From an uncultured Pseudomonadales bacterium (lineage in GTDB: Bacteria > Patescibacteriota > Microgenomatia > UBA1400 > MFAQ01): a stretch of DNA of 39,573 nucleotides. Position numbers and translations under genes: made by a program. The stretch is taken from NCBI GenBank assembly GCA_964541175.1, contig CAZIPD010000002.1, forward strand, positions 1 to 39,573, read 5' to 3'. Shown here in pieces: positions 1 to 38,598 of the stretch. Each line of letters starts with the position of its first letter. Positions within the stretch are counted from its first letter, which is position 1. The notes beneath the pieces are model-generated. The model was given only the letters and a program-made list of their open reading frames with translations. It searched no databases and was not told where the DNA came from.

Positions 1-59
1 TACAATATCCCTTCTCGAATCCTTCATCAAAAAAAGATATACTAAAATTACACTTTCAT

Positions 60-941
60 ATGGCCATCCAGCAGCACCCCCTACCACAGGACATCAGTAG
101 CTACCGCTTCCGCTTGATCGGTGACATGACCATCAAGCAATTTGGTATGCTTGCCGCAGGCATCATTCTGGCCATTCTCTTCTATTCCTCACCTCTACCC
201 TTCTTCTTCAAGTACCCCATTTCTTTCATTTTCCTCGTGCTTGGAATAGGCTCCGCCTTCGTTCCTGTCCAAGGCCGTCCTCTGGATCAATGGATCCTAG
301 CCTTCATCAAATCTATCTATGCTCCCACCCAATACACCTGGCGCCAGACCCCGCCGGAAGAAGCGGCTCAAACCGCACTCACTCAATCACCTCTTACTTC
401 TGCCCCCAAAGCCCCCTCCGTCAGCCCCTCTTCCACCGTCCCTGCCGCTGCTCCACTCCCGGTAGCCGTTCCTGAACCCATCACTCCCGCACCCGAAACC
501 CCACCTGAGCCTGAAATAGTCATCATTCCCGAACCTACACCACAGGAGGAACCGGAAACTCCCGCCGATCTACCCGACCTCGGTATTCCCACTCCCGCTC
601 CTGTCTCCCAGCCGGAGAATCCTTCTCAAGCTCCGGCTCCAACAACCAATCTTCCGATTCCGTTTACCCCCACCACTCCCAATACCCTGGTCGGTCTTAC
701 TCTTACCCCGGACGGAAAGATCTTGGAGAATGTCTTAGTAGAAATACTCTCCAATGGTCTGACCATAAGAGCCACCAAAAGTAACCGTCTCGGCCAATTC
801 ATGTTCGCCCGTCCTCTCGAAAAGGGCCTCTACCAGATCGCCGCCGAGAAAACCGGTTTTAACTTCTCCACTTACTCCATCGAATTAACAAACAAAATTG
901 TCTCTCCGCTCAAGATCCAAGCGGAATCGGGCACAGCATAA
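60..941 (+). CDS. PrgI/VirB3-like T4SS membrane protein fused to a Pro-rich linker and a C-terminal carboxypeptidase-regulatory-like beta domain
   Basis: ATG ORF of 293 aa. The N-terminal ~95 aa carry two TM helices and the PrgI-family pattern (PQDISSYRFRLIGDMTIKQF...GRPLDQWILAFIKSIY). It lies directly upstream of a VirB4-type ATPase. A ~110-aa Pro/Glu/Thr linker follows. The last ~75 aa (LVGLTLTPDGKILENVLVEI...GLYQIAAEKTGFNF) resemble a CarboxypepD_reg/Ig-like fold. Confidence 0.6.
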   Translation: MAIQQHPLPQDISSYRFRLIGDMTIKQFGMLAAGIILAILFYSSPLPFFFKYPISFIFLVLGIGSAFVPVQGRPLDQWILAFIKSIYAPTQYTWRQTPPEEAAQTALTQSPLTSAPKAPSVSPSSTVPAAAPLPVAVPEPITPAPETPPEPEIVIIPEPTPQEEPETPADLPDLGIPTPAPVSQPENPSQAPAPTTNLPIPFTPTTPNTLVGLTLTPDGKILENVLVEILSNGLTIRATKSNRLGQFMFARPLEKGLYQIAAEKTGFNFSTYSIELTNKIVSPLKIQAESGTA

Positions 942-944
942 CCA

Positions 945-1613
945 ATGGCCGACAACATCAGAGCTTCCACCCAGGAACATCTCGACATCTATACCATCAA
1001 GAACCATCTAGTCTTTCTCAAAGACGGTACGGTAGCTCTTGTCCTCAGGACCACTGCGATAAACTTCAATCTTCTCTCCGAAGAAGAACAAGACGCCACC
1101 ATCTATGCCTATGCCGGACTCCTTAACTCTCTTTCTTTCTCAGTTCAAATTCTCATCCGCTCTCAAAGAAAGAATATTTCCGATTACCTTGATCTTCTCG
1201 ACAACAGAATTCAGATCACCCCTTCACAAAAGATAAAGGAGCAACTCCTCGCCTACCGCCAGTTCGTCAAATCCCTGGTCAAAGAGAACCGTGTTCTTGA
1301 GAAAAAATTCTTCATCATTATTCCCTTCACCTCCCTCGAACTTGGAATTACCTCCGCTACTTTTAACCCCATCGCCAAAGCTCCCCAGAAACCTCCCTAC
1401 GATCTTGATTACATCGAAGAAAAAGCTGCCATGGCTCTGTATCCCAGAAGGGATCACTTAATAAGACAATTTGCCCGTATCGGTCTAAGGTCGCAACAAC
1501 TCACTACACCCGAACTGGTCAATCTCTTCTATTCCATCTATAACCCCTCCTCTGCCGCCACCGCTACTGCCGCCCAAACCAAGGCTATTGGCGGCATCTC
1601 TAACGATAAATAA
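945..1613 (+). CDS. hypothetical T4SS-associated protein, VirB4 N-terminal-domain-like, without a P-loop
   Basis: ATG ORF of 222 aa, 3 nt after the previous stop. It has no TM segment and no Walker motifs. Residues ~8-90 align by eye with residues ~50-130 of the adjacent VirB4. Confidence 0.55.
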   Translation: MADNIRASTQEHLDIYTIKNHLVFLKDGTVALVLRTTAINFNLLSEEEQDATIYAYAGLLNSLSFSVQILIRSQRKNISDYLDLLDNRIQITPSQKIKEQLLAYRQFVKSLVKENRVLEKKFFIIIPFTSLELGITSATFNPIAKAPQKPPYDLDYIEEKAAMALYPRRDHLIRQFARIGLRSQQLTTPELVNLFYSIYNPSSAATATAAQTKAIGGISNDK

Positions 1614-1638
1614 AGCCTCAATCCGTTATACTTAAACT

Positions 1639-3492
1639 ATGGCTTTTAATCTCTTTGGTCGCGCCCCTAAAGCCCCCGCCAATACACCCGTCGCTGCCAC
1701 TGCGGGTACTCCTGTCATGCCGACTCCTGCTCCAACCCCACCACCTCCCCCTCCCCCAAAAACAAAAACTACTCAAGGAAGCACCTCTGTCCAAGACATC
1801 ATCGCTCCCTCGGCCATAGAAATAGATTTTTCCAGTTTAAAAATAGATGACGTCTACCTCCGCACTCTCTTTGTCACCGGATATCCCCGCTATGTCTCGG
1901 CCAACTGGCTCTCTCCTTTGATTAACTTCAATCACTCTCTTGATATCGCTATGTATGTTTATCCCAGCGATTCCAAAGATACTCTTGATCAACTAAGACG
2001 CCGTATCGCCGAGATGGAAGCGGAGATCAATACCGATATTGAACGCGGGCGCATTCCCCAAGCCAGTACGGAAGCCGGTCTTGAAGACGCCAAATCCCTC
2101 CAGGAGCAACTGGTCAAAGGGGCTGAACGTTTCTTCCAGTTCTCTCTCTACATCACCGTTTCTGCCGACTCCATTAAAGAACTCAATACCATCACCTCAC
2201 AGATCCAGTCGATGCTTGCCTCTCTTCTCATCATCGGTAAGACCGCTTCTCTCTCCATGGAGGACGCCTTCAAAACCACCCTTCCCTACTGTAAAGATCG
2301 TTTGATGATCACCAGGAACATGGATACCACTGCTCTTTCCACTACTTTCCCCTTCACCTCCTCTGAACTCTCTGATAACCAAGGGATCCTTTACGGTATC
2401 AACTCTCATAATGACTCTCTCGTCATCTTTGATCGTTTCTCTCTGGAGAACGCCAATATGCTCGTTCTGGCCACCTCCGGTGCCGGTAAATCATACTGTG
2501 TCAAACTCGAGATTCTTCGTTCTCTGATGTTTGATACACAGATCATAGTTCTCGATCCCGAGAATGAATACGAAATGATCGCCAAAGCCGTTGGTGGCAA
2601 CTATCTCTCCTTCGCTTCCACCTCTGCCCATAAAATTAATCCTTTCCAAATTGCCAAGCCCCTTGAAAGTACCGAGGACGAGATGGGATATAAATATCTC
2701 TTCCTCATGTCCCTTCTAAAGATCATGATCGGGGAAATGTCACCCATGGAAGACGCCACTATGAACCGGGCCCTCGTTCTTACGTATCGGCAAAAAGGTA
2801 TCACCGAGGATCCTTCAACTCATGTCATTGAAGCCCCTCGCATGGAAGATCTCTACCGGGCCCTCATCGGCATGGAAGAACCCGTCAGTAAGATCCTCGC
2901 TGCCAGGCTGGAACGCTACGTCATGGGCTCGATCAAAGGCATCTTTGACCAGCAATCGAACATCGACATCAACGCTCCTGTTACCATCTTTTCCATGCGC
3001 GACCTTGCCGATGAGATCCGTCCCATCGTCATGTTCATGATCCTCGACTTCGTTTGGACTCAAGTAAGAAAAGATCTTCGGAAGCGCATGCTCATCGTCG
3101 ATGAGGCCTGGTATCTCATGCGCTATGAAGACTCTGCCAAGATTCTTCAAGGATTTGTTAAACGTGCACGCAAATACTTCCTCGGGGTCACCGTCATCTC
3201 CCAGAACGTCGATGATTTCCTTGGTTCACCCTATGGTAAAGCCATCATCACCAACTCCGCTCTCAAACTCCTACTCAAACAATCCTCTGCCGCCATCAAC
3301 CAAATATCAGAGGTCTTCTTCCTTTCGCAAGGAGAACGTCAACTCCTTCTCTCCGCCAATATAGGAGAAGGGATCTTCTTTGCCGGTCAAAATCATGTCG
3401 CTATGAAGATCATTTCCTCTCCCGATGAACACGCTCTCGCCACCAGTAAACCATCGGAAATTCTAGATCGTCAAAAAGCTGCCCCTGTCTAA
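1639..3492 (+). CDS. virB4: VirB4/PrgJ/TrsE-family type IV secretion ATPase
   Basis: 617 aa. Walker A is ATSGAGKS (2470-2493) and Walker B is MLIVDEAWYL. The C-terminal motif ARKYFLGVTVISQNVDDF is typical of VirB4/TraE. The N-terminus is Pro-rich. Confidence 0.85.
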   Translation: MAFNLFGRAPKAPANTPVAATAGTPVMPTPAPTPPPPPPPKTKTTQGSTSVQDIIAPSAIEIDFSSLKIDDVYLRTLFVTGYPRYVSANWLSPLINFNHSLDIAMYVYPSDSKDTLDQLRRRIAEMEAEINTDIERGRIPQASTEAGLEDAKSLQEQLVKGAERFFQFSLYITVSADSIKELNTITSQIQSMLASLLIIGKTASLSMEDAFKTTLPYCKDRLMITRNMDTTALSTTFPFTSSELSDNQGILYGINSHNDSLVIFDRFSLENANMLVLATSGAGKSYCVKLEILRSLMFDTQIIVLDPENEYEMIAKAVGGNYLSFASTSAHKINPFQIAKPLESTEDEMGYKYLFLMSLLKIMIGEMSPMEDATMNRALVLTYRQKGITEDPSTHVIEAPRMEDLYRALIGMEEPVSKILAARLERYVMGSIKGIFDQQSNIDINAPVTIFSMRDLADEIRPIVMFMILDFVWTQVRKDLRKRMLIVDEAWYLMRYEDSAKILQGFVKRARKYFLGVTVISQNVDDFLGSPYGKAIITNSALKLLLKQSSAAINQISEVFFLSQGERQLLLSANIGEGIFFAGQNHVAMKIISSPDEHALATSKPSEILDRQKAAPV

Positions 3493-3495
3493 AAC

Positions 3496-6400
3496 ATGGC
3501 CGAAAAATCCTCAATCGTCTACATTCTTCGACAAGCAATTGGGATCATCTCGGAACGTCCCATTCTTGATGATCTCTCCGACAAACGGAGACAACATGTT
3601 GCTGCCATCATTTCTCAGTTCGCCAACATTCCTTACATTAACTCGATTGCTGAAGAACTTCAGCTAAAAGGTATCGAGGCCATAATCAATCATTTTCCCC
3701 TCTCTTCTGCCCAAGACTGTCTCGATCTTTACGAGAGAGATGAACCCAAAAGCGAAACCAAGACCGCCCCTGAAGAAACACCTAATATTCCCCCTGAACT
3801 GGAAGCTCTGGTAGCTGAATACGAAGAACATCTGTCCGAAAAGAATGTCAATGACGGCAAGGTAAGCTCTGTCGCCGAGTCGGTCAAACGTGCCCGTGAG
3901 GCCATGATCATTCGCGAAAGACTCTCCGCCATTCGCAAAAATAGAGCGGCCCTTTCCTATAATCCTGAAGATTTTAATCAAGCAGAGGACAAACGTTATG
4001 AAGATCTAATAGTAAAAATAGTTAATCCCAAAGCCGGCTCTCATGAGGCTGTCATGGCTCCTCTTAACGAAGTTATTTCTCAAGCCGTCGACTCATATAT
4101 CAACACTTACCCGGATATTACCGAAGACCAGAAAAAACATCTCAAAGAGTTAGCCCCATCCGTTATCGACTCCACCCGCTACCTCGCCCTAACCGAAGCC
4201 ATAGACATCGAAAATCATCATGACCTTGTCACCGCCATCTCACTTTCCATCTTCAAAGCCGACGATCAATACACCACTTCCATCTCCGATATCTATGTCG
4301 AACTTGACAACAACGCCGCCAAACACGATCGTCTAAATCAGGATATAGCCAGAGAACAACTCAAGCTGTCAAGTCTAAAAACTGAAAGGTTCCAGGCTAA
4401 GGATAAGCCCGAGATGGTGGATCACTATGTAAGTCTGATATCCACCACGGAAGCCACCATTGCTCAAAAAATAAACCAAAGGGATACCATAGATATTGAC
4501 CTTACTCCTTTCACCTCCAAAGTCGAAGACTATCTCTCCTCCACCACCCAGACCGTAATCTCTGGAGTAAAAAAGCCCGATGGTTCTCAAAATTTGGACT
4601 TCGATACCCAATCTGCAGCAGCCAGAAAAGTTCTTGATGAAATTCACTCAAAGCTTTCCGCCGACAAAAATATTCAGCGTAGGATTCCTCCTCCCGAAGA
4701 CCCTCTTCGCCAAGCAGTCGATTTGGAAAAAAATATTCGTGCCGAATTACCTCAGCTGGGTCTGAATCCTCATGCCACCAACGAAGCTCAACAAGCGTCT
4801 ATCCTCATTTCTGACCCTAAAACTCAATCAAAAGACCTCTCCGGACAAACTATCCTTCTCTACAGTAAAGGCCTGACCACCGCCGAGTTTGACAAAGTCA
4901 TCTCCCATGCTTGGTCTCATCAAAATGACCCCAACTCCTCACTCGGCAAACTCTACAAAGCTCACCCTGAGCTTTTCGGTACCATCAGACAACAACTGGA
5001 AACCATCGAAAAAACCGACACTCCCGAGGCTCACATAGAAAGGGTGAGGACCTTCGCCAATGACCCTGACAATGCTCAATCCGCCCTCTCTCTCCTCTCC
5101 AAGAACAAAGCCGCCTATGAAGAATATTTGAACCTCTCAAAAAAACTTTCTTCGAAAGAGATTGTTAGTTGGGTAAAGGACAAAGCAAATCAACACACCT
5201 CACTCGCAAAATTTTACCAAGCCAACTCCCGCTTGTTCGGTAAGATCAACACGGAATTTGAAAAGGTCAAAAACTCGGCACTGGCAAGAGAAATCGGCAA
5301 ACCGATCGGAAGATTGACTCGTTCTCTCAACTCCATCAACAACAGAATAACTTCAAGACTTAATAAGATCTCAGGTTTCTTTTCCAGGAACCATTCGACA
5401 ATTAATACCATCCTCGACCCGTTTGGATCACTCAAAAGCTATTTTGGTCGCCAAGCCGGCCAATTCATTACCGGGCGTCTCGTCCCCAATCTGGCCTCAA
5501 GCTCCATCGGCAAACTCCTCACCAAAGAAGGTCTAAAAAACACCATCAAGGTCTTAGCCAAGAAAGCCGGCGCCAGGGCAGCTGCACTTGCTGCCAAGAT
5601 CGCTGTTAAAGCCGGTATTAGAGTCTCTGCTCAAGCTCTTGCCGTCGTCTCCGGTGTTGCCACTTTTGGCGTCGGTATCATCATCTACATCGGCGCAGAG
5701 ATCTTTATGCAAGGTATTAAGATTCTCAAGAAAGGTCTCGATTGGCTCTCTCAAGCCTTCTATGGTGAAGAGTTTAACTTCAAGACCGCTGCTCGGGACG
5801 CCGCCACAGGAGCAGCAGCTCTCTTTGGAGTAGGAGCAACTGCGTTTGTCGGTTTCGTAGCTGTTGCCGGAGCCATAGCTTCCTCCGCAGTAGCTTCTGC
5901 ACTTGGAATAATAATTGTTTCCTCTTTCATCGGATATTTCTTTTACATCACCTCAATCCTTGCCGGCCCTATCGTCTCCACTCTTGCCCAACTGGAAGCC
6001 GCCCCCAAAAGTGCCGTCTCCGGTTTTTGTTCTGGATCGACCATGAACAACGACAATCTCACCTGTAATGAGTACAACGGGATTACCTATTGCTTCCCGG
6101 TAAATGATATCTCCACCGTCTCCTATGTCACCGCTCATCATGACTATCCTGCCAATGACATCATGAGGGTCGGTGATAAACCGGGTCAGCCTGATGATAT
6201 TCCCCTTCCCCTCATTGCCTATGTCGACGGCACCGTCATCTGGACCTCGGAAACTGAAGGCCTGGGTGGTTACGCCTTCATCATCGCCGGTATCGACGGC
6301 ATGTTCTACTACTATGCTCACAATATGTGTAATTTTGTATCGATGGGTCAACTGGTAAAGGCAGGGGACATCCTTGGTGGGATGGACTCCTCGGGTAATG

Positions 6401-6564
6401 CCCAAAGTACCCCTGAACACGTTCATTTTCAGATCAGCGATCAGTCTGATATGACAACCGTTCCCGAAAATTACCCCCATTTTTACGCTCCTTGGGTGGA
6501 TTTTTGTGAGAAACTTAATCTGTGCGGACCTCTCAATATTGAAGTTTACCCGGAATTCCAATAA
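3496..6564 (+). CDS. large membrane protein with a C-terminal M23 (LytM-type) peptidoglycan endopeptidase domain; putative T4SS cell-wall hydrolase
   Basis: 1022 aa. The N-terminal ~680 aa are helical and charged. A block of several TM helices follows (AAALAAKIAVKAG...IIIVSSFIGYFFYITSILAGPIV). The C-terminal M23-like domain has HVH at 6418-6426 (EHVHFQI), YAHNM, and a variant first motif HHDYPANDI (6136-6159). Confidence 0.75.
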   Translation: MAEKSSIVYILRQAIGIISERPILDDLSDKRRQHVAAIISQFANIPYINSIAEELQLKGIEAIINHFPLSSAQDCLDLYERDEPKSETKTAPEETPNIPPELEALVAEYEEHLSEKNVNDGKVSSVAESVKRAREAMIIRERLSAIRKNRAALSYNPEDFNQAEDKRYEDLIVKIVNPKAGSHEAVMAPLNEVISQAVDSYINTYPDITEDQKKHLKELAPSVIDSTRYLALTEAIDIENHHDLVTAISLSIFKADDQYTTSISDIYVELDNNAAKHDRLNQDIAREQLKLSSLKTERFQAKDKPEMVDHYVSLISTTEATIAQKINQRDTIDIDLTPFTSKVEDYLSSTTQTVISGVKKPDGSQNLDFDTQSAAARKVLDEIHSKLSADKNIQRRIPPPEDPLRQAVDLEKNIRAELPQLGLNPHATNEAQQASILISDPKTQSKDLSGQTILLYSKGLTTAEFDKVISHAWSHQNDPNSSLGKLYKAHPELFGTIRQQLETIEKTDTPEAHIERVRTFANDPDNAQSALSLLSKNKAAYEEYLNLSKKLSSKEIVSWVKDKANQHTSLAKFYQANSRLFGKINTEFEKVKNSALAREIGKPIGRLTRSLNSINNRITSRLNKISGFFSRNHSTINTILDPFGSLKSYFGRQAGQFITGRLVPNLASSSIGKLLTKEGLKNTIKVLAKKAGARAAALAAKIAVKAGIRVSAQALAVVSGVATFGVGIIIYIGAEIFMQGIKILKKGLDWLSQAFYGEEFNFKTAARDAATGAAALFGVGATAFVGFVAVAGAIASSAVASALGIIIVSSFIGYFFYITSILAGPIVSTLAQLEAAPKSAVSGFCSGSTMNNDNLTCNEYNGITYCFPVNDISTVSYVTAHHDYPANDIMRVGDKPGQPDDIPLPLIAYVDGTVIWTSETEGLGGYAFIIAGIDGMFYYYAHNMCNFVSMGQLVKAGDILGGMDSSGNAQSTPEHVHFQISDQSDMTTVPENYPHFYAPWVDFCEKLNLCGPLNIEVYPEFQ

Positions 6565-6569
6565 ACAAT

Positions 6570-7658
6570 ATGGATAAAGTAAATCAAATCATCGCCAAGA
6601 TCCAAAAACACCGTCTCCTCCTGGGGGTGATAGCCGTCATCATTATCGGTTACCTTATCTCCCTCATCCCTCGACCGGGTACTCGCCCCTTCACCCCGAC
6701 CCAACCGATTCTTCCCCAAATCACTCCCACCCCTTTTAGTGCCCAAACCTACACCCAAACATTTTCCACCGAAAGATACATAAAGATCACTGATAATCAA
6801 CAGATAGTGGCCGTCAATCAAGAAAAACAACTTGTTCAATATCTTGGCGACACTCCCTTCCCCATCACTCCCGACGGACTCACTGTTGTCGACTATCAAA
6901 CCAGAGGTGGTAGCCTGGTCTACGAAGCCGGCACCTACGCCGATCCCGACAATGCCTTCTATCTTCTAAGTCTCACTAATAAATTCCAAGTTAAGCTCAA
7001 CACCACTCCCTACAAACCCATCATTAACTACAGTATTAATTCCACCGAGAGTAGCCTCGCCTTCTTGGGAAAATATGACGCCACAAAGAGTATCTCCACT
7101 CTTTATCTCTATGACCTGTCGACGAATATTACCACCCCCCTTGAAGAGAACATCACCGCCAATTCGGTTTCTTGGCTAAATGATAACTACCTTTTGATCA
7201 GTAATAAAATAGACGTCAATATCGGACCTAACAACTTCATCAATATCTTTTCCTTATCCACCAAAGAATTCATCGTCAAAAATATTCCGGCCTTGGACAG
7301 ATCGGTCACCTTCAGTGACACAAACGGACTTCTTTATTTTGTAAATTCCAAGAACAATATCCTCACCTCGCTCAATCTATCATCCGCGACCTTCACGGAC
7401 GTTCTTAAGCTAACCACACTACCCACAGATATGTTCTTCAACCGGTCCAACAACTCTCTGGTACTCCTGATTGCCGACGATAGCGGACTTCTTGTCAGGG
7501 TCGTCGATCCCAACCAAAAGAAGGTGATCAAAGATGTCTCTCTTCAGTTGGATAAGGATGAGATATATATCGAACACTTTCAATCGGGAAGTTCTCACTT
7601 CATCAAGACCTACAATCGAAATTTTAAACATTACGTCGTCAAATATCTTCCCCTCTAA
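6570..7658 (+). CDS. N-terminally TM-anchored beta-propeller-like (TolB-like repeat) protein
   Basis: 362 aa. One N-terminal TM helix (LLLGVIAVIIIGYLISLI) is followed by repeated beta-strand blade-like segments (SLVYEAG..., SLAFLGKYD...LYLYDL, SVSWLNDNYLLIS, LLYFVNSKNN, SLVLLIADDSG). It is the last gene of the T4SS-like operon. Confidence 0.45.
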   Translation: MDKVNQIIAKIQKHRLLLGVIAVIIIGYLISLIPRPGTRPFTPTQPILPQITPTPFSAQTYTQTFSTERYIKITDNQQIVAVNQEKQLVQYLGDTPFPITPDGLTVVDYQTRGGSLVYEAGTYADPDNAFYLLSLTNKFQVKLNTTPYKPIINYSINSTESSLAFLGKYDATKSISTLYLYDLSTNITTPLEENITANSVSWLNDNYLLISNKIDVNIGPNNFINIFSLSTKEFIVKNIPALDRSVTFSDTNGLLYFVNSKNNILTSLNLSSATFTDVLKLTTLPTDMFFNRSNNSLVLLIADDSGLLVRVVDPNQKKVIKDVSLQLDKDEIYIEHFQSGSSHFIKTYNRNFKHYVVKYLPL

Positions 7659-7670
7659 TCCTCCTGTAGA

Positions 7671-8780
7671 TTACTGCTGCATCCTGACCGGCATGATCAC
7701 CTGCATCCAGTTTTCGTCCTTTGCTCTGAACACGCTCGGCTTTAATTCTCCTTCTGTCTCCCAAACCACATTTTGCTCATCAAATATATTCAAGTAATCC
7801 AATAAATACTGCGCGTTAAACGCCACAGTGATTTTCTCTCCTTCCACCTCTGCCTCGATCTCCGACTCATTAGTGCCCACCTGACTACTCTCGGCGACGA
7901 CCTTTAATGTTCCGTCTTCCACTGATAGCCTGACAATATTGGCATTCTCCCTGGCAAATAGTTTGGCTCTTTTAACGGCCTCGGCGAATTCATCTTTCCC
8001 AAAACTTGATCTGGTATTGTACGTATTTGGCATTATCTGCTGATACGGAGGAAATTCCCCTGCGATCAATCTGGAAGCTACTTCTACCCCATCCAAAGCG
8101 AATATCACCTGTTGATTTTCCTTATCGAACTCCACTGCCAAAGAATCTACTCCCATTTCGCCCGCTACCCTGGAGACCTCCATCAAAGACCTTGCCGGCA
8201 ATATCACCTTTCCCAAAAGCTTTTCCTCTATCTTAGGGATTTTCATCTTGTCCACGCTCAGTCTATACCCGTCCGTAGCCGCCAAGACCACCTCTTCCGA
8301 CTTGAATTCCCACAACATCCCCGTCAATACCGGCCTGGTATCGTCCTTGGCTGCCGAAACGCTAACCTTATCGACTTTCTCTCTAAACTCTCCCGCATTT
8401 ATCTTCAGCTGTGACGACTTCATCCTGGGTATCACCGGATAATCATCGGCCTCTTGCCCCATGATCTCCGCCTTGATCTGCTTGCTCTTCAATATCAATT
8501 TATTTTTATCAGTTTCAATATCGACCGCTCCCGGTGGTAGACTGGCCACCAGATCCGAGAATAGTCTTGCGGGGACAACGATCTCTCCCTCCTCGATCAC
8601 CTTTGCTCCCATCTTTGACCAGAAACTTATTTCCAGATCCGTAGTCACCATTTCCATCCCCTCACCGGTTGCCCTGAGCAACACTCCGGACAGGACGGGT
8701 AACTGAGGTCTGCTGCTTATCCCCCTACTCACCACACCCAGTGTCTTTTTTAAATTTTCTGATAAGGCTGTCACTTTCAT
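7671..8780 (-). CDS. dnaN: DNA polymerase III beta sliding clamp
   Basis: 369 aa with the typical DnaN N-terminus (MKVTALSENLKKTLGVVSRGISSRPQLPVLSGVLL) and three-domain length. It lies immediately downstream of dnaA. Confidence 0.95.
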   Translation of the reverse strand: MKVTALSENLKKTLGVVSRGISSRPQLPVLSGVLLRATGEGMEMVTTDLEISFWSKMGAKVIEEGEIVVPARLFSDLVASLPPGAVDIETDKNKLILKSKQIKAEIMGQEADDYPVIPRMKSSQLKINAGEFREKVDKVSVSAAKDDTRPVLTGMLWEFKSEEVVLAATDGYRLSVDKMKIPKIEEKLLGKVILPARSLMEVSRVAGEMGVDSLAVEFDKENQQVIFALDGVEVASRLIAGEFPPYQQIMPNTYNTRSSFGKDEFAEAVKRAKLFARENANIVRLSVEDGTLKVVAESSQVGTNESEIEAEVEGEKITVAFNAQYLLDYLNIFDEQNVVWETEGELKPSVFRAKDENWMQVIMPVRMQQ

Positions 8781-9131
8781 TAAGCTAATCTTACCAAAGC
8801 AATTCCCTTTACGCGCACCTTTATCTCTCCCTCTCTATTAACAATATATTTATATAAAGATAGTAGTTATTAGTAGTAGGTGTTGTGGATATGTTGATTA
8901 CCCTGACTGACCGTCTCCCAAATTCCCTGTCAATAACTTAACTCTCATCCAAACATCAATCAATTTCCTCTCTTTAAGACAAATCTATGCCCAAAATGTT
9001 CCGTAAAACCGCCGATCTTTGTTGACAAAGTTCTTGATAACTAAGCTACTTCTCCACCGACTATTGAAAAAACATTTGTCATATCCCCATTTTGTGAAGT
9101 TGTACACACTCTGTGAATTGTCTGTGGATAT
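8781..9131. other. candidate oriC (dnaA-dnaN intergenic region) with an AT-rich unwinding element, TAG-trio repeats and DnaA boxes
   Basis: 351-bp non-coding spacer. The AT-rich tract is at 8838-8862. TAGTAGTTATTAGTAGTAG lies at 8861-8879. TGTGGATAT (reverse complement ATATCCACA, 8/9 to TTATCCACA) occurs at 8884-8892 and again at 9123-9131. Weaker boxes are TTATCTCTC (8821-8829) and TTGTACACA (9100-9108). Confidence 0.6.
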
Positions 9132-10508
9132 CTATGTGTACAATGCCTGTTTTACCGCCAGTATTTTTCTTCTTACATCGGGTTTTTCCTTCATCTCGTC
9201 TTCCATTTTTTCAACCGCATGCATTACCGTACTATGGTCTCTTCCCCCCATCAGCTCGCCTACTTTTTCCAGTTGGATCCCCAAAGAATCTCTGAGCAAA
9301 TACATGGCGATGTGTCTCGCCAAGACCAGCTCGGCTTTCCTGCTTGTTCCCAAAAGATCCTTATTCTTGTAGTCAAAATACTTCGCCACTGTCGAAATAA
9401 CTTTCAACGGCCTAACCTTAACGCTCTGCCCTGAAGAGGCCGGTAGTCCCATGGTTTTCTGTACCATGTCCGAAGTTAGTTGTCCCCCCTCAATACTGGC
9501 CATCGTCGCCAACTGTACAAAAGTGCCCCCTAGCTCCCTGGCATTGGTAGTGAAATTATTCGCCATCATGTCAAAAGCCTCGTCTCCCACGTCCGCCCCC
9601 ATCTCCGCCGCTTTCTGTTTGAGTATCGCCAACCTCATCTCGTAGTCGGGTAAGCCGATATCTACCATCATCCCTCCCAAGAAGCGACTTTTTAGTCTGT
9701 CCTCCAGTAACTGTATCTCCTGAGGTTTACGGTCTGCTGTCATCACGATCTGCACCTGTTTCATCTGTAGCTCATTGAACGTATGGAAAAACTCCTCTTG
9801 AGTTGAGTCTTTTCCCGAGAAGAACTGGATATCGTCGATCAATAATGCCCCCACCAGCCTGTACTTCTTCTTAAATGCATCGGTCATCTTTGAGCGAAAT
9901 GAAGCCACCAGATCATTAGTGAACTGCTCACTGCTGATATACACTACCTTCCCGACCCCCTTCTTCACCAGCTCATGGCCCACGGCGTGCATTAAATGGG
10001 TCTTCCCTACCCCCACCCCACCATAAATGAATAGCGGATTATGTCTGGATCCTGGATTCTCCGCCACGGCCTTGGCGGCAGCGAATGCCAATCTGTTCGG
10101 GCCTCCGACAACATAAGACTCAAAAGTAAATTTAGGGTTCAGATTATTTGCCCTTGTATCCTCCGGCACGGCAAAAAGGCTCTCGCTCTTACTCTTATCC
10201 ACCTTCTGCTCCATCGAGCTTGCTTTGGCCACGGTTTCTTTCTTGGCGTCCACCACCAAAGCCAGATCACACTTTTTCTTTGTCAATCTCTCTACCACCG
10301 TCTTGATCTGACTGTAGTACTTCACCTCCACCGTTCTTGAGTGATATACCGAAGGTGAAGCTAACTCCACTATTATTCGGCTCTCGTCGACCGGGATGAT
10401 AGATCTGATGAAGCAAGGCTTTATCCATGCGGAAAAACCTCCCGGGGTCATCTGGACCTCAAGTTCACCACAAACGCTATCCCACAATCGATCAGAGGTT
10501 ATCTCCAT
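9132..10508 (-). CDS. dnaA: chromosomal replication initiator protein DnaA
   Basis: 458 aa. AAA+ Walker A is GGVGVGKTHL and Walker B is LLIDDIQF. The C-terminal DnaA-box-binding domain is present (LVLARHIAMYLLRD...GGRDHSTVMHA). Confidence 0.97.
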   Translation of the reverse strand: MEITSDRLWDSVCGELEVQMTPGGFSAWIKPCFIRSIIPVDESRIIVELASPSVYHSRTVEVKYYSQIKTVVERLTKKKCDLALVVDAKKETVAKASSMEQKVDKSKSESLFAVPEDTRANNLNPKFTFESYVVGGPNRLAFAAAKAVAENPGSRHNPLFIYGGVGVGKTHLMHAVGHELVKKGVGKVVYISSEQFTNDLVASFRSKMTDAFKKKYRLVGALLIDDIQFFSGKDSTQEEFFHTFNELQMKQVQIVMTADRKPQEIQLLEDRLKSRFLGGMMVDIGLPDYEMRLAILKQKAAEMGADVGDEAFDMMANNFTTNARELGGTFVQLATMASIEGGQLTSDMVQKTMGLPASSGQSVKVRPLKVISTVAKYFDYKNKDLLGTSRKAELVLARHIAMYLLRDSLGIQLEKVGELMGGRDHSTVMHAVEKMEDEMKEKPDVRRKILAVKQALYT

Positions 10509-10553
10509 ATGGTCAACTACTTACTAACGGGGCAGATAATCTATTTGTAGCAC

Positions 10554-10570
10554 TTATCCACATTTCCACA
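10554..10570 (+). promoter_or_regulatory. DnaA box pair in the dnaA upstream region
   Basis: A perfect consensus TTATCCACA lies at 10554-10562, directly followed by ATTTCCACA at 10562-10570. The pair sits 46-62 nt upstream of the dnaA ATG on the opposite strand, which is consistent with autoregulation or the second half of a bipartite origin. Confidence 0.65.
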
Positions 10571-10603
10571 ACCCCCAGCTTACCCAAAAAGACTGTATCA
10601 GAG

Positions 10604-10641
10604 TATAATAACCCAACGCACCTTAACTCTATTCCAGGAGG
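10604..10641 (+). promoter_or_regulatory. -10 element and Shine-Dalgarno for the 10647 ORF
   Basis: TATAAT lies at 10604-10609. AGGAGG lies at 10636-10641, 5 nt before the ATG. Confidence 0.4.
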
Positions 10642-10646
10642 AAAAA

Positions 10647-11165
10647 ATGTCCGTTCGCAATGATGCTAAAGCCATTTTAGCCAAGCTGACCGAAGCTTCG
10701 AGGCTCCCTAAAAGCGCGCCTCCACGCAGCCAGATTGAAAAGATCAATGATCAACTCGTCCGGCTCTTATCCTCAGATGAAATGTCGCCACTGATGGATT
10801 TCCTTACCGATTACTCCCCCAGAACGACCAGCAGTTACGGCTACCTCTTTGACCCTATCCCCACCGTTGATCTCAAGCCCGCCCTAAAGGCAAGCAAGAA
10901 TCCTCGCTCACAGTATTACTGTGCCAGGTACAAAGTTGAAGATTATGGCTGGATCTATCTTGTTCCCCTCCTTGGGGACCCGGATTTCGCCCTGGTCCTC
11001 AAACCGTCCCGGCCACTCCGCCGCGATATCCATGTCAATTCTGCCACGGTAAAAGGTTTTTCTCTTACCGTTGTCTACCCCCCGTACGAGGATCTTGGCC
11101 GTTTGGTACTTGTCTGGGCTGTTGTTATTGAAGCTATCAAGCTTCAGCATGATAACAAGAAATAA
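10647..11165 (+). CDS. hypothetical protein (orphan inserted between dnaA and rpmH)
   Basis: 172-aa ATG ORF with a strong SD and its own downstream intrinsic terminator. I recognise no motifs. Confidence 0.65.
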   Translation: MSVRNDAKAILAKLTEASRLPKSAPPRSQIEKINDQLVRLLSSDEMSPLMDFLTDYSPRTTSSYGYLFDPIPTVDLKPALKASKNPRSQYYCARYKVEDYGWIYLVPLLGDPDFALVLKPSRPLRRDIHVNSATVKGFSLTVVYPPYEDLGRLVLVWAVVIEAIKLQHDNKK

Positions 11166-11179
11166 GTGTTGGAAATTTT

Positions 11180-11206
11180 GGCAGGGTTAACCCCCTGCCT
11201 TTTTTG
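11180..11206 (+). terminator. rho-independent terminator
   Basis: GGCAGGG-TTAACC-CCCTGCC followed by TTTTTT. Confidence 0.75.
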
Positions 11207-11219
11207 TACCAATGTATCG

Positions 11220-11225
11220 TATAAT
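11220..11225 (+). promoter_or_regulatory. -10 box upstream of rpmH
   Basis: TATAAT lies 31 nt upstream of the rpmH ATG. There is no convincing -35. Confidence 0.35.
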
Positions 11226-11256
11226 AACCACCGCCTTTAAATGATAAAATAAGCAC

Positions 11257-11394
11257 ATGCCAAAAAGAGTCTACCAACCTAAAAAAATGAAACGCGTCCG
11301 TACTCATGGATTCAGAATTAAGATGTCCACCGCCGCTGGCCGTAACGTTATCGCTCGCCGCCGCGCCAAAGGTCGCGCCAAACTGACCGTTTAA
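11257..11394 (+). CDS. rpmH: 50S ribosomal protein L34
   Basis: This ORF is below the ORF-track size cut-off. My own translation is [45 protein letters not shown] (45 aa), the canonical L34 sequence, immediately upstream of rnpA. Confidence 0.92.
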
Positions 11395-11399
11395 TAACT

Positions 11400-11747
11400 A
11401 TGGCTCTTCCCCTAATTAATCGTCTTCCTCTCAAAGGTCAGAGGGAGAGAATTGATAAAGAGGGTTCTCCTCTCCACTCTTCTCTGTTCACCATTGTCCT
11501 AGCACCCTCACCGAAAGGCACGGTTCACCCTCGCCTTGCCGTTTTGGTATCCAAAAAGATCAGTAACCTCGCCGTCGACAGGAACCGTCTCAAACGCCAA
11601 GTTCTAAATGCCGTATATGACCTCCTTGACATGATCAAACCCGCCGACTACCTCATTATTCCCAAGAAAATAGCCAAAGATCAGGAATTTTCTACCCTCT
11701 TACTGGATTTAAAAAAACTACTCACTCATGATTCGGCTACTCCTTGA
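11400..11747 (+). CDS. rnpA: ribonuclease P protein component
   Basis: 115 aa with the RNR-type motif VSKKISNLAVDRNRLKRQ. It sits in the rpmH-rnpA-yidD-yidC synteny. Confidence 0.85.
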   Translation: MALPLINRLPLKGQRERIDKEGSPLHSSLFTIVLAPSPKGTVHPRLAVLVSKKISNLAVDRNRLKRQVLNAVYDLLDMIKPADYLIIPKKIAKDQEFSTLLLDLKKLLTHDSATP

Positions 11748-11970
11748 TTTCTACCACAAAGCTATCTCCCCTATCACTCATTCAATTGGCCAAGCACTTT
11801 TCGGTTCTCACTTCGCTTGTCGTTTCACCCCCACCTGTTCTCAGTATGCTCGCCTATCCATCAAGCGTTATGGTATTATCACAGGGGCAAGAATGGCGCT
11901 ATTAAGATTCATTCGCTGTCAACCATTCTCCCGGGGAGGTTTTGACCCGGTACCTGATAAAATCAAATAG
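11728..11970 (+). CDS. yidD: membrane protein insertion efficiency factor YidD
   Basis: 80 aa with CRFTPTCSQYA...RCQPFSRGGFDPVP. It overlaps rnpA by 20 nt. Confidence 0.9.
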   Translation: MIRLLLDFYHKAISPITHSIGQALFGSHFACRFTPTCSQYARLSIKRYGIITGARMALLRFIRCQPFSRGGFDPVPDKIK

Positions 11971-11972
11971 CT

Positions 11973-12716
11973 ATGTTTTCATTCATCTCAAATATCATCT
12001 ATCAACCACTCCTTTTCTTCTATCGTATTTTCGGTGGCAATCTCGGACTCTCCATAATTGCCCTTACCCTCCTCATCAAAGTAGTTCTCATTCCTCTCGT
12101 CATTCCTACCATCAAGTCCGCCAAAAAGATGCAAGATCTTAAACCTGCACTGGACAAACTAAAAACAAAACACACCGACAAAGCCAAACTTCAACAAGCT
12201 CAACTGGAACTCTACAAACAAAACGGCATCAATCCGGCCGCCGGTTGTCTTCCCCAAATCGTCCAGATCGTCGTTCTCATAGCCCTCTATCAAGTGTTCA
12301 TGAAATTCCTTGGCCAGTCGGAAGTTTCCGGTATTGCCCTAAACCCCAACTTCCTCTATCTCAATCTCAACAAACCCGACCAATTCTATATTCTCCCTGT
12401 TCTCGCCGGCATCACTCAGTTCGTTTTTTCCCTCATGATGCAGTCCGGTCTTGAATCACATGTACACAACCCCAAGAAGAATACCGACAAGAAAAAAGAA
12501 GAAGATAGTCTTGAAATGGCCGCTAGCATGCAGACCCAGATGGTCTACATGATGCCCGTCATGACCACGGTGATCTCTCTTAACTTTCAGTCCGGTCTCG
12601 TCCTCTACTGGGTTATCTCTACTCTCTTTTCGATCGTTCAGCAATATTATTTTTCCGGTTGGGGTGGTCTCAAACCATTCCTCGTCAAGATCAGAATTAT
12701 AAAAGTTAATCAATAA
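11973..12716 (+). CDS. yidC: YidC/Oxa1-family membrane protein insertase (short form)
   Basis: 247 aa with NGINPAAGCLPQIVQIVVLIALYQV and multiple TM helices, in conserved synteny. Confidence 0.85.
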   Translation: MFSFISNIIYQPLLFFYRIFGGNLGLSIIALTLLIKVVLIPLVIPTIKSAKKMQDLKPALDKLKTKHTDKAKLQQAQLELYKQNGINPAAGCLPQIVQIVVLIALYQVFMKFLGQSEVSGIALNPNFLYLNLNKPDQFYILPVLAGITQFVFSLMMQSGLESHVHNPKKNTDKKKEEDSLEMAASMQTQMVYMMPVMTTVISLNFQSGLVLYWVISTLFSIVQQYYFSGWGGLKPFLVKIRIIKVNQ

Positions 12717-25805: not shown

Positions 25806-26621
25806 TTGAGTATGCAATTTTTCGAGACCTTCATCTACCAACCCTTCTTTAATATTCTGGTCGGTCTCTATTGGCTGATCGGGCAGTTCATGCCCGAACC
25901 GGATATGGGTATCGCCGTTATTCTTTTTTCGGTAGCGGTTAGACTCATTCTTCTACCCATAGACCTCGCAGGATCACGATCGGATAAAGAGAAATTCGAC
26001 ATTGCTCTCAGAGTCCACAAACTCAAAAAAGATTATGACGATGATCCAATCAAACAAGCTGAAGAATCGAAAAAGATCATGCGTCAAAGTCCGGGTGCCA
26101 TTGTCTCCGAGATCGTCAACATCATCATCCAATTCGTCATCATCATCATGCTCTACCGTATCTTTAAGACCGGTCTTGAAGGAGCTGACTTCCATCTGCT
26201 TTATGACTTCATGCCTCACATCCCCCAGCCGATCAACCTGATGTTTTTGGGGAAATACGATCTCTCACAGACAAACAATACTCTCAATCTTATCCAATCA
26301 CTGATGATCGCCATCAACGAGATATTCCATCTCTACTTTTCCCCCGTCAAGCCAACGAGAAAAGACTTCATCTCCCTCGTTATAATCTTCCCGGTCTTCT
26401 GTTTCCTTGTCTTTATCTTCCTCCCCGCAGGCAAAAAGGTTTTCATTATCACTTCCCTGGCCTTCTCCATAACCAAAAAACTCATTGAACAAACCCTCTT
26501 TCTCTATTACTCTCTTACTCACAGGGCTGCCGGAGCCACTCTCGAAGCAACCCCCTCGGTCCCTGCTTCGCCCTCGGAAGCTCCTCCCCAACCCCCACCT
26601 CCACCGGCTCCCGGAGTATAA
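25806..26621 (+). CDS. second YidC/Oxa1-family insertase paralog with a Pro-rich C-terminal tail
   Basis: 271 aa (TTG start at 25806, or ATG at 25812). The TM1 motif GIAVILFSVAVRLILLPI carries the conserved Arg. Five predicted TM helices are present. The tail is PSEAPPQPPPPPAPGV. Confidence 0.55.
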   Translation: MSMQFFETFIYQPFFNILVGLYWLIGQFMPEPDMGIAVILFSVAVRLILLPIDLAGSRSDKEKFDIALRVHKLKKDYDDDPIKQAEESKKIMRQSPGAIVSEIVNIIIQFVIIIMLYRIFKTGLEGADFHLLYDFMPHIPQPINLMFLGKYDLSQTNNTLNLIQSLMIAINEIFHLYFSPVKPTRKDFISLVIIFPVFCFLVFIFLPAGKKVFIITSLAFSITKKLIEQTLFLYYSLTHRAAGATLEATPSVPASPSEAPPQPPPPPAPGV

Positions 26622-27260: not shown

Positions 27261-27279
27261 TTTTGTATATACTTTAACT

Positions 27280-30200
27280 ATGGCCTCGCCCAAGTATTCC
27301 GTCCTGCAGGTAAAACCTGCCAAAGACTCCCTCATTGGGCAATCCACTTTTGTCCAATTTCTCAGTTCGCTTAAATCTTCTCTTAGGGCAAATATGCTCG
27401 ACCGCCTTCTTGGTACCTATGACACCATCTGTCTGGAGATTATCAACCTCAACCAAACAACCTTTTTTGTCATTGCTTGTCCGGAGAGAATGGAGCACCT
27501 GGTCCGCTCACAAATAGCTGCTCAATACCCCAATGCCCTGATTAATCCCATGGAGGACTATTTACCCCAGTGGCTGACACACGGTCAACCCCAAGCGGCT
27601 AGGCTTGTCCTCACGGCCCCTTCATATCTTCCGATCAATGCTACCGACGATGCGGCTGTAGATCAACTTTCATCGGTCCTCGGAGGACTTTCCCGTCTTC
27701 TCCCGGGTCAAGCTGCCATTATCCAGATCTGCTTATTTGCCGCCCCCAAGAACTGGCAAAGAGCTATTCGTGGATTTCTCGACGCAGGTGTCGGCAATGA
27801 GCCTGAAAAATTCAAGGCTCACCCTCAAAAAACCCACATCGAAACAAAACTGGCATATCAGGCTTACTCCGCCGATATTCGTTTAGTGGCCATTACACCT
27901 AGCGAAGATCAATCAAAGAACCTTCTCCACCAACTGGCAGCCGCCTATGGCACCTATTCTTCCTCCGAAGGTAATAGTTTTTCCCTCAAGACCCCCAAGG
28001 CGCACAACCAACAGAAGTTGATAGACTCCATCATTAACCGTTCCGCCAAGTATGCTACCCAGAGCCAATATTTAAATTACTTTGAAATATCCGCCCTTTT
28101 TCATCTTCCCAATGCCAATCTGGCAACCATAAAAAATATCGCTTGGGGAAAAACTCTCAAAGGAGAGCCTCCCGCCAACCTTTTCGTCGAGGAAGGACTG
28201 ACCGAGGAAGAGAAGAAAGACATCAACTTCTTTGCCAAGACCGAGTTCAAGAATCAACTGGTGAGTTTTGGCATGAAGAAAGGGGACGACCGCCGTCGAC
28301 ATGTCTACGTCTTGGGTAAATCCGGTACCGGTAAATCCACGCTTCTGGCTAACATGTGTATCAATGATATCCGTCATGGAGAGGGAGTTGCACTGGTCGA
28401 TCCTCATGGTGATACTGCCGAGAGGATCCTTGACTATATTCCCCGAGAACGTATCAACGACGTTGCCTATCTCGACCCTTCGGTTGCCGGGAAATCATTC
28501 CACATGAATCCGCTCTTCGTCAAAAATCCGGCCTACAGCGAACTTGTCGCCTCGGGTATCGTCTCGATTTTCAGCAAACTCTACGGTAACTCTTGGGGAC
28601 CTCGTCTCGAATATATTTTAAGGAATACTCTCCTCACCCTTGTTTCCAAACCGGGATCGACACTCCTCGACGTCCCAAGACTTCTGACCAGTAAACCGTT
28701 CCGTGAGGATTACCTGACCAGTGTCAAAGATGCCGTTCTCATTAACTTCTGGCACGATGAATATGACAAATACTCCGAAAAATTTCAGTCGGAAGCCATC
28801 TCTCCTATTCTTAACAAAGTCGGTCAGTTTATAACCTCTCCGACAATCAGGGATATCATTTCTCATCCCGACTCAACGGCCGACTTCGAAGACCTGATGA
28901 ATCAAGGCAAGATCATCATTCTCAATCTCCCTCAAGGCAAGATCGGTGAAGACAACGCCGCTCTTCTTGGAGCCATGTTCATCTCCCAGATCCAGATAGC
29001 CGCCATGAACAGGGCCAATATTCCGGAGGAACAACGCAAAGACTTCTTCCTCTACGTTGATGAGTTCCAGAACTTCGCCACGACTTCATTTATCAAAATT
29101 CTCTCCGAGGCCAGAAAATACAGACTTAACCTGATTCTTGCTAATCAATACACTGCCCAACTACCGGAAGAGATCCAAAAAGCCATTTTTGGCAACGCCG
29201 GTACTTTAATTAGCTTCGTCGTCGGCGCCGATGATGCCAACCGTCTCATGAGCGAGCTTGGAAGCTTCTACACCCAGGACGACCTCGTCTCCCTTCCACG
29301 CTACCAAACGATAATCAAGCTCTCGGTCAACTCCACCATCTCCATGCCTTTCCCGGCTCACACTCTACCCGTGCCACCGGTCACCGACACCTTCCGCCAA
29401 CAAGTCATCGAATCCAGTGAATCCCGATATTACCGCCCCATCGTCGAGCAGCCCATGCCCGTTCTTCCTCCGTATAAAGAGGAACCTCGTCGTGAAGAAA
29501 GACGCTACCAGGATCAACGCCCTCAACGCCAATACGATTCTCGACCACAACAATCCCAACCCCCTCAACGCCAATACGATTCCCGACCACAACAGCCTCA
29601 ACCTCCTCGAGAATATAATCCTCCTCGCCCTTTGGAGCCGCGACCCCAATATCAACAATCCCAACCTCCAAGACAATCTCCATCTCCTCAAACTGCTCAA
29701 AACACGCCTCAATCACCGACTCCTCACCTTTCACCGGGGCCAACACCCAAAGAACCAACGATTGAAGAACTGGACGCTCTCCGTCGACAGGGGCTCCGAC
29801 CAAGTGTGGTCGGTTGTTTTGTAAACGAAAAACACCTCCTCCTCGTCTATCAGAAAATTCACAATATGTGGACTCTTCCTCAAGGGGGGATTGATAATCA
29901 AGAAACCCTCGAAGTTGCCTTTCAAAGAGAACTCTCTGATGAGGTTACCGAAGACTTCGTTAAGAACACCAAAAAAGCTGAACTCATCGCCGAAGATAAG
30001 ATCGAGTTTCCTCCCGGGAAGCAAGGGCTTCGCGACATGAAGTTGGACTCGGGTGACCCCGTGACGATGAAGGGAAAATATTATTACTTCTTGGTCTCCC
30101 AAGCCAATACCCGTGACATTGTGGTCTCGGCAACGGAATTTGACGACTACAAGTGGCTAAAATATGAAGAAGCGTATAAACTTATTAAAGAGTCCAATAC

Positions 30201-38486: not shown

Positions 38487-38526
38487 CTCTCGGAAAAAAT
38501 ATCCGTTGAACTGAACGATGTTTGTG

Positions 38527-38598
38527 AGGCCGGTGCCGGAGTCGAACCGGCGCATGGCGGTTTTGCAGACCGCAGCGTTACCCCTTCGCCAACCGGCC
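38527..38598 (-). tRNA. tRNA-Cys (anticodon GCA)
   Basis: I folded the cloverleaf by hand. Acceptor stem is GGCCGGU/ACCGGCC. The D arm is GCGA...(A)CGC with an A13-A22 mismatch. The anticodon stem GCGGU/ACCGC closes the loop CUGCAAA. The variable loop is CAUGC. The T arm is GCCGG-UUCGACU-CCGGC. The discriminator is U73. No CCA is encoded. Confidence 0.9.

Follow-up and report, generated by a model that had tools for sequence, protein, structure and literature searches.

The dnaN-linked type IV secretion genes of a Microgenomatia genome are part of the known chromosomal system of Patescibacteria

What kind of machine is encoded by a set of type IV secretion system (T4SS) genes that carries no relaxase and lies against the replication genes dnaN and dnaA of a patescibacterium? 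The question is raised by a stretch of 39,573 nucleotides (nt), hereafter the window (contig CAZIPD010000002.1, positions 1 to 39,573 of the forward strand, assembly GCA_964541175.1), which is filed under an uncultured Pseudomonadales bacterium and whose host is a Microgenomatia patescibacterium related to Collierbacteria. An earlier note on this DNA had read the five genes at its left end as a minimal envelope-spanning machine with a subunit set unlike those of described systems. We find instead that the locus is the right-hand part of the known chromosomal T4SS of Patescibacteria and not a new system; the combination of PrgI, TrsD and VirB4 beside dnaN and dnaA without a relaxase is a published set (PMC12102498; PMC10633639), and the claim of a distinct one falls.

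The five open reading frames (ORFs) are co-directional on the plus strand, and their coordinates, the gaps of 3, 25, 3 and 5 nt between them and the 12 nt between the end of the last and the dnaN stop codon were confirmed exactly as the earlier note had given them. From this spacing and the lack of internal promoter or terminator matches we infer that they form one operon; an Rfam search of it gave no match. A scan of a genome collection yielded 78 distinct loci from different species (denoted by L numbers below), against which the window proteins were searched by tblastn.

The motor is encoded by ORF3 (1639-3492; 617 amino acids, aa), a VirB4 ATPase of the CD1110 type within the mating-pair-formation class FATA (MPF-FATA). 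It passes the NCBIfam model of the CD1110 VirB4 family (368 bits against a cut-off of 325, E = 8.8e-110, model positions 181-733 of 752), matches Pfam P-loop_TraG at 6.5e-28, and carries a Walker A motif, ATSGAGKS, exactly at the predicted nt 2470-2493 and a Walker B motif, LIVDEAW, at nt 3091-3111. Its best match among solved structures is the VirB4 C-terminal domain 4AG5 (E = 4.4e-45); TrwK is matched at 5.8e-6, and NCBIfam CedB weakly, at 1.1e-14. A protein search returned at least 8000 matches at E ≤ 1e-10. The 120 matches listed are 74-100% identical, and among them nearly all with a source name come from Collierbacteria, Woesebacteria, Microgenomates or Patescibacteria; on these best hits ORF3 appears to belong to the Patescibacteria VirB4 clade.

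Located 25 nt upstream of ORF3, ORF2 (945-1613; 222 aa) has no Walker A motif and matches the N-terminal regions of VirB4 proteins and TrsD, in agreement with its first description as a P-loop-less protein resembling the VirB4 N-terminus. The NCBIfam matches are to VirB4_plasma (5.6e-8, model positions 126-233 of 894) and TrsD/TraD (2.6e-5; weak, with 24 bits against a curated cut-off of 200), and on the CD1110 model ORF2 covers positions 19-117 of 752, i.e. the N-terminal part. Its homologues carry the PF26593 TraC-like tag, and neither a relaxed Pfam scan nor a search against PDB sequences gave a match for ORF2. It is 64-92% identical within the Collierbacteria-like clade and 42-59% identical in more distant Microgenomatia. 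Because ORF2 and ORF3 occupy complementary coordinates of the same CD1110 model, they are, on this sequence evidence, a split VirB4, with a TrsD-type piece equivalent to a detached N-terminal domain and a separate ATPase. The VirB4 genes of some Collierbacteria (L074, at 1970-5611, and likely also L075, L076, L077, L079 and L083) contain an intein of about 596 aa with a LAGLIDADG-type endonuclease inside Walker A (GAGK / S...VHN / SYAVK), and splicing restores the GAGKSY of the window.

The first gene, ORF1 (60-941; 293 aa), codes for a PrgI/VirB3-like membrane protein, as had been supposed. It passes Pfam PrgI over aa 8-91 (nt 81-332) with 35.6 bits against a cut-off of 27 (E = 1.4e-8), and two transmembrane (TM) helices are predicted. 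The PrgI domain is followed by a Pro-rich linker of about 110 aa and a C-terminal β-sandwich of the transthyretin/CarboxypepD_reg kind (about nt 687-917), whose CarboxypepD_reg match (E = 1.7e-5) lies under the Pfam cut-off. The two TM helices are flanked by positive charges on either side, and this β-sandwich may accordingly be cytoplasmic. Identity within the Collierbacteria-like clade is 50-72% across the full length. The PrgI-like proteins of the clade (the window and L001-L083) are about 290-305 aa long, three times the usual VirB3/PrgI size, and share both the Pro-rich linker and the conserved C-terminal transthyretin-like β-sandwich.

PrgI, TrsD and VirB4 are colinear in 60 of the 69 evaluable loci, a convergent dnaN lies at most 8 kb downstream of VirB4 in 47 of 53 (with gaps from 17 nt to 6.3 kb), and dnaA, rnpA and yidC come next in unchanged order in the relatives. 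The identity of VirB4 rises and falls with that of DnaA (Spearman 0.87). Across the 46 comparable loci DnaA is without exception the less conserved protein. Mean identities are 70% for VirB4, 65% for TrsD, 50% for PrgI, 53% for DnaA and 48% for DnaN. The GC content of the operon (0.477) is close to that of its surroundings (0.471), and its strand skew equals theirs. The absence of mobility functions that had been noted is borne out: no relaxase or integrase domain is found in the scanned ORFs of at least 100 aa across the 39.5 kb of the window, no att-like repeats are present in 1-12000, and the only tRNA gene in the window is tRNA-Cys at 38526-38598, so that no tRNA boundary flanks the operon. 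Upstream of the equivalent position in the relatives, too, there is no relaxase or integrase, and pilin arrays and a polytopic protein are found there instead. Synteny, co-divergence with DnaA, composition and the lack of mobility genes and repeats together mark the locus as a vertically inherited chromosomal system of long residence that is under strong purifying selection, and on these grounds we reject an integrative and conjugative element (ICE); the earlier view that the locus encodes a chromosomally fixed, Gram-positive-type T4SS-like envelope machine rather than a conjugative one thus stands. In six loci of some Microgenomatia (L040, L041, L044, L067, L035 and L038) PrgI and TrsD abut dnaN and VirB4 lies beyond dnaN-dnaA-yidC, the T4SS genes thus straddling the dnaA block.

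The system to which the window belongs has been surveyed in 3,035 Patescibacteria genomes (Quinonero-Coronel et al. 2025, PMC12102498). The main text of that survey describes a monophyletic VirB4 clade nested in MPF-FATA, with TrsD (VirB4 N-terminal-like) as the most abundant partner, PrgI/VirB3 homologues present and VirB3 anchoring VirB4. It reports VirB2-like pilin arrays, especially in Microgenomatia and Saccharimonadia, relaxases as almost absent, coupling-protein homologues mostly far from virB4, and VirB6 as scarce in Microgenomatia and undetectable by profiles; the commonest virB4 neighbors in Paceibacteria and Microgenomatia are dnaN, dnaA, rnpA and rpmH. The locus studied here shares with this description the MPF-FATA-derived VirB4, the adjacent TrsD-like protein, PrgI/VirB3, the lack of a relaxase, a distant coupling-protein homologue, the place next to dnaA, dnaN, rnpA and rpmH and, in its relatives, pilin arrays nearby. 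Nothing essential differs from the system as the main text presents it. PrgI adjoins VirB4 in 60 of 69 loci here, against an association of only 22.6% given there for Microgenomatia VirB3 homologues. In that main text we found neither the ORF4 architecture as a constant gene after VirB4 in the Collierbacteria-like clade nor the variable last gene (a propeller or a family of about 340 aa) nor the absent skew switch at dnaA, all of which are taken up below. In Candidatus (Ca.) Southlakia epibionticum, transposon sequencing (Tn-seq) has shown the T4SS cluster SEML1_0006-0019, which lacks a relaxase and a coupling protein, to be essential for epibiotic growth (Wang et al. 2023, PMC10633639), and the survey's main text records the peptidase and lysozyme genes downstream of virB4 as essential in the same species. 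A 2025 review treats such systems as a recognized new branch of the T4SS superfamily (PMC12857230). Before this system, no T4SS had been shown to be essential to the cell that carries it, and it may be a conduit by which ultra-small epibionts live off their hosts. The window provides a clean Microgenomatia example and adds to the picture the conservation of VirB4 above DnaA, the fast turnover of surface-facing genes and a restricted ORF4 family.

Among classical systems a TrsD that is separate from the neighboring VirB4 ATPase, TrsE, is found, according to the survey's main text, in one MPF-FATA subclass only, the Trs/Tra systems of the staphylococcal plasmids pGO1 and pSK41; like the window they have a VirB3-like small membrane protein and a cell-wall hydrolase within the operon. 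They differ in that they are plasmid-borne and conjugative and possess a relaxase and a coupling protein, their VirB3 homologue is TrsC and not PrgI, their hydrolase TrsG is of the VirB1 type without an M23 domain, and they have no pilins. The Prg/Pcf system of pCF10 (Enterococcus) and the CD1110-containing CTn2 (Clostridioides) share with the window the PrgI family, the CD1110 VirB4 and the order VirB3-VirB4-hydrolase, and differ in having a full-length VirB4, PrgH/CD415 (VirB6), PrgL (VirB8-like), a coupling protein and a relaxase, and in transferring DNA. Counterparts of PrgH/CD415 and PrgL are not detectable in the window, and profile searches found no VirB6 or VirB8 in Collierbacteria-like Microgenomatia. 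The Helicobacter pylori ComB and archaeal Ced importers offer only a functional analogy, being chromosomal and not self-transmissible, with a VirB4-type motor and no relaxase, and are possible models for an import function; membership at the sequence level is not seen for the motor, the one component compared, the CedB match of 1.1e-14 standing against 8.8e-110 for CD1110.

Is the operon, then, as minimal as the earlier note had it? The window begins 59 nt before ORF1, and its left flank was judged from the relatives. In L001, whose VirB4 is 90% identical, the 10 kb upstream hold three PF18895 T4SS pilin genes, a secreted protein of 733 aa, a protein of 606 aa that has 6-9 TM helices besides its signal peptide, and a divergent soluble protein of 970 aa. 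Iterated profile searches recovered a conserved polytopic membrane protein of about 600 aa within the 3-10 kb upstream of PrgI in 39 loci and upstream arrays of 2-5 VirB2-like pilin genes in at least 14; in L001 and no fewer than 13 further relatives, the PF18895 arrays are found 8-10 kb upstream of VirB4. Neither family occurs within the window. The polytopic family is a better candidate for VirB6 than ORF4 is, and a comparison of its profile with PDB sequences and of its members with Pfam gave no significant match (TrbL at E = 0.95 in one of 16). The appearance of a minimal operon is therefore an effect of the window edge, as relatives carry the polytopic and pilin genes upstream and the window itself has a coupling-protein-like ATPase that had been missed. 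This VirD4/TraG-like protein (27277-30522, plus strand), 20 kb from the operon, shows Pfam DUF87, TraG-D_C, TrwB_AAD_bind and NUDIX matches, NCBIfam matches to the CD1115 VirD4-like family (4e-9) and SXT_TraD (2.6e-9), and a Walker A motif, GKSGTGKS, at aa 347; a long Pro/Gln-rich linker joins the ATPase to the C-terminal NUDIX domain. Hydropathy analysis revealed no clear N-terminal TM helices in it. It is a possible distant component of the T4SS. Its ORF overlaps the next one (30317-31507) by about 200 nt.

The gene that follows VirB4, ORF4 (3496-6564; 1022 aa), has an unusual architecture. The M23 domain that had been proposed for it is clear (Pfam Peptidase_M23, 47.5 bits against a cut-off of 28.7, aa 905-983, nt 6208-6444); its description as polytopic holds only weakly, with just three hydrophobic helices (aa ~706-822, nt ~5611-5961) and an amphipathic segment. 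The first ~690 aa are predicted to be soluble and helical, without a signal peptide, which together with the three TM helices implies an N-in, C-out topology, the N-terminal domain presumably being cytoplasmic and the peptidase external. An alignment of homologues shows beside the TM helices an invariant motif, GPIVSTLAQLEA at nt 5965-6000 and GPIxSTLAQLEA in the family; the N-terminal domain (aa 1-160) contains an invariant PPELEALVAEYE...RNRAALS block, and the HxH motif (HVH, aa 975-977, nt 6418-6426) and the YAH histidine of the peptidase are likewise invariant. The AlphaFold2 (AF2) model is unreliable (predicted local distance difference test score, pLDDT, of 50 from a 6-sequence alignment), a Foldseek search with it returned only LytM/M23 domains at non-significant E, and relaxed Pfam scans of ORF4 sub-regions gave no match. 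A role as a channel subunit of the VirB6/PrgH/TrbL kind is not supported, since the protein has three and not at least five TM helices, no TrbL match appears up to E = 5, and Foldseek yields nothing past the M23 domain. Where VirB1/TrsG carry a canonical SLT or CHAP domain, ORF4, a predicted peptidase, has an M23 domain, so that it counts as an analogue of the VirB1 cell-wall hydrolase in function, without homology to it. Its family is small, with only 83 representative clusters matching among 1.84 billion proteins, and the M23 domain is kept in 7 of 10 distant members. No Collierbacteria-like locus lacks a gene of this family immediately after VirB4, and some distant loci have one there too; the junction spans 3 nt in the window, against 1-2 nt in L001 and L003. 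In Collierbacteria-like Microgenomatia, with neither VirB6 nor VirB8 found by profile searches, the family may be a previously unrecognized core T4SS subunit, one that could combine a scaffold or channel role with cell-wall cutting.

The last gene behaves differently. ORF5 (6570-7658; 362 aa) was modeled by AF2 with a pLDDT of 76.9 and a predicted template modeling score (pTM) of 0.71 as a TM helix (aa ~7-30), a disordered Pro-rich linker (30-77) and a β-propeller (aa 80-360, nt 6807-7649), for which Foldseek found WD40, prolyl-oligopeptidase and TolB propellers at E ~1e-9; the TM-anchored β-propeller that had been predicted is thus confirmed. The family is present in only 6 species among the 78 loci and has only 3 database homologues. 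Most relatives have a different TM-anchored family of about 340 aa before dnaN, L001 has both, and in several Microgenomatia (L030, L072, L082 and L032) VirB4 adjoins dnaN with neither ORF4 nor ORF5. Of the five-gene synteny beside dnaN that the earlier note had proposed as a test, the four-gene core is conserved and the fifth gene varies between lineages. ORF5 is a lineage-specific accessory surface protein, and the interchangeable last gene, β-propeller or ~340-aa family, may be a host-specificity module. The 12 nt between the ORF5 and dnaN stops (7659-7670) contain no terminator hairpin, and the RNA fold z-score of the junction is +1.34. The same convergent junction measures 0 nt in L001 (17086/17087) and is a 4-nt overlap in L003 (15437-15440). 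With convergent, near-abutting stops and no terminator, transcripts from the T4SS operon and from dnaN should run antisense into each other.

In solved Gram-negative T4SSs, as in the R388 structure, membrane anchoring is performed by VirB3 and the N-terminal domain of VirB4. By inference from these and from the essentiality data in Ca. S. epibionticum, PrgI and TrsD would dock a VirB4 hexamer to the membrane, and VirB4 would drive the building of a channel and/or a VirB2-type pilus, the subunits of which are encoded upstream in relatives. Local opening of the cell wall, as by VirB1 analogues, would fall to the external M23 domain of ORF4, and the ORF4 C-terminus, ORF5 and the pilins would be the fast-evolving, host-facing parts. 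Conservation declines from the cytoplasmic motor to the surface (where VirB4 is 90% identical, ORF4 is 52% and ORF5 38%), which fits such host-facing surface parts. The machine as a whole would serve an epibiotic lifestyle through contact-dependent exchange with a host bacterium and not conjugation. We hold it to be very probable that the locus is the window-resident half of a vertically inherited Patescibacteria T4SS that works as a non-conjugative epibiotic machine of this kind. As to what passes through it, pilus-mediated host contact with protein export would be our tentative first choice, import of host DNA or other macromolecules is somewhat doubtful, and some other substrate or direction would be more doubtful still.

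Several points weigh against the reading of the locus as an epibiotic T4SS. What the system does, and what it moves in which direction, is extrapolated from a single species of Saccharimonadia; the operon is drawn only from gene spacing and missing internal promoter and terminator matches; the placement of ORF3 in the Patescibacteria clade comes from best hits; and only relatives show the pilin array and the polytopic protein. In ORF4, the first M23 zinc motif is non-canonical and lacks the HxxxD spacing, so that catalysis is not certain, and for the N-terminal and TM parts no relative with a known function could be detected. The locus might alternatively be the mating-pair-formation module of an ICE, or a decayed remnant of one, that came to lie next to dnaN by chance; the VirB4 family is indeed defined on a conjugative transposon (CD1110/CTn2), TrsD and PrgI are conjugation components, and a VirD4-like ATPase is present in the window. 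We regard this as highly improbable: the window scans found no relaxase, integrase, att repeats or tRNA boundary, dozens of species share the chromosomal position and their divergence tracks DnaA, composition and skew match the flanks, and the genes upstream in relatives are pilins and membrane proteins and not mobility genes. The conservation of VirB4 above both DnaA and DnaN in all 46 loci is equally unfitting for decay.

It is also conceivable that the system is a dedicated importer of DNA as a nucleotide source, like H. pylori ComB or archaeal Ced, feeding a cell unable to make nucleotides. As in importers of that type there is no relaxase and no adjacent coupling protein, ORF3 has its weak CedB match, and the authors of the survey, in its main text, favor import of DNA or other macromolecules; moreover, in Ca. 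S. epibionticum ComEC-dependent uptake is dispensable and the T4SS essential (PMC10633639, PMC12857230). The CedB match is, however, far weaker than that to CD1110, Pfam and NCBIfam scans of the five genes show no evident DNA-binding or nuclease component, and the VirB2-like pilin arrays, being essential, suggest that the system forms a pilus or acts in contact, so that we find a dedicated importer rather unlikely. A further doubt is whether the five genes make up one machine at all, or whether PrgI, TrsD and VirB4 are the T4SS core and ORF4 and ORF5 are unrelated wall and surface genes filling the gap before dnaN. The variable width of that gap, the four loci without either gene, the rarity of ORF5 and the usual presence of the ~340-aa family in its slot speak for this division. 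Against it, the ORF4 family keeps its place directly after VirB4 throughout the Collierbacteria-like loci and beyond, peptidoglycan hydrolases beside virB4 are the rule in monoderm T4SSs, and Ca. S. epibionticum, according to the survey's main text, cannot do without the peptidase and lysozyme genes that follow virB4. For the two genes together we judge the division improbable; for ORF5 it stays plausible. The epibiotic T4SS remains the reading that we prefer.

Whether the locus lies at the replication origin, as the earlier note had stated, depends on which evidence is consulted. The conserved convergent neighbor of the operon, dnaN (7671-8780, minus strand; TIGR00663, 285 bits), and dnaA (9132-10508, minus strand; TIGR00362, 457 bits) together with rpmH-rnpA-yidC-jag form the canonical origin neighborhood, and DnaA-box-like 9-mers are clustered at 8884, 9123, 10195, 10554 (perfect) and 10767, with 17 observed in the window against about 9 expected. 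Yet the GC skew at third codon positions (GC3 skew) of the plus strand is negative (-0.1 to -0.6) in 32 of 33 genes, on either coding strand, from nt 60 to 39534, and no change of sign is seen at dnaA across the whole 39.5 kb. The neighborhood and the boxes thus favor an origin, the skew does not confirm one, and the location at an origin is not established. The entire Collierbacteria-like clade has one-signed skew on both sides of dnaA; among other Microgenomatia, some show the classical minus/plus switch at dnaA and four loci are positive on both sides. By the usual rule the leading strand is G-rich, and with one-signed skew the fork would then cross the whole window from right to left. Under this rule 29 kb or more separate dnaA from a skew-defined origin on its right, and 26 of the 33 window genes are on the lagging strand; the head-on orientation of the operon to the fork, noted before, is consistent with the skew, the operon being on the C-rich strand. 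In this clade, then, either the origin is away from dnaA or most window genes (the 26 on the plus strand) are lagging-strand genes. The dnaA-T4SS block may no longer be at the functional origin in the clade, and the absent switch bears on the published gene-dosage argument; as far as gene dosage goes, the locus could still be close to the origin. A search of the literature for unusual skew in the Candidate Phyla Radiation (CPR) or Microgenomates led to PMC7111523, which has nothing specific. The spacer between dnaA and rpmH, where oriC elements are usually expected, is filled by a 172-aa ORF (10647-11165, plus strand) without a family match and followed by a terminator-like hairpin (11180-11199); in L003 this spacer is only about 100 nt.

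Set against the known system, what is left as new is ORF4 with its family, a terminal gene that varies and the anomalous skew. That ORF4 is an unrecognized core subunit, the last gene a host-specificity module and the dnaA-T4SS block off the functional origin seems to us unlikely.

The other genes of the window are housekeeping genes, namely rpmH, rnpA, yidC, khpB/jag, RNase H and a DUF4012 protein, and further L25, leucyl-tRNA synthetase (LeuRS), TsaD, GroES/EL, PGK and GAPDH. There are two YidC/60KD_IMP paralogues (11973-12716 and 25806-26621), and 3' of the second come an SPFH/Band-7 gene and then the coupling-protein-like ATPase. A stand-alone M23 peptidase (35627-36214, minus strand) is the sole window gene with the opposite sign of GC3 skew (+0.19), which suggests a recent local inversion or acquisition. 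Many public contigs of metagenome-assembled genomes (MAGs) with Microgenomatia synteny (L006, L009, L012, L034 and others) are titled "uncultured Pseudomonadales", "Gammaproteobacteria", "Spirochaetia", "Clostridia" or "Bathyarchaeia", titles that are probably placeholders or wrong taxonomic labels.

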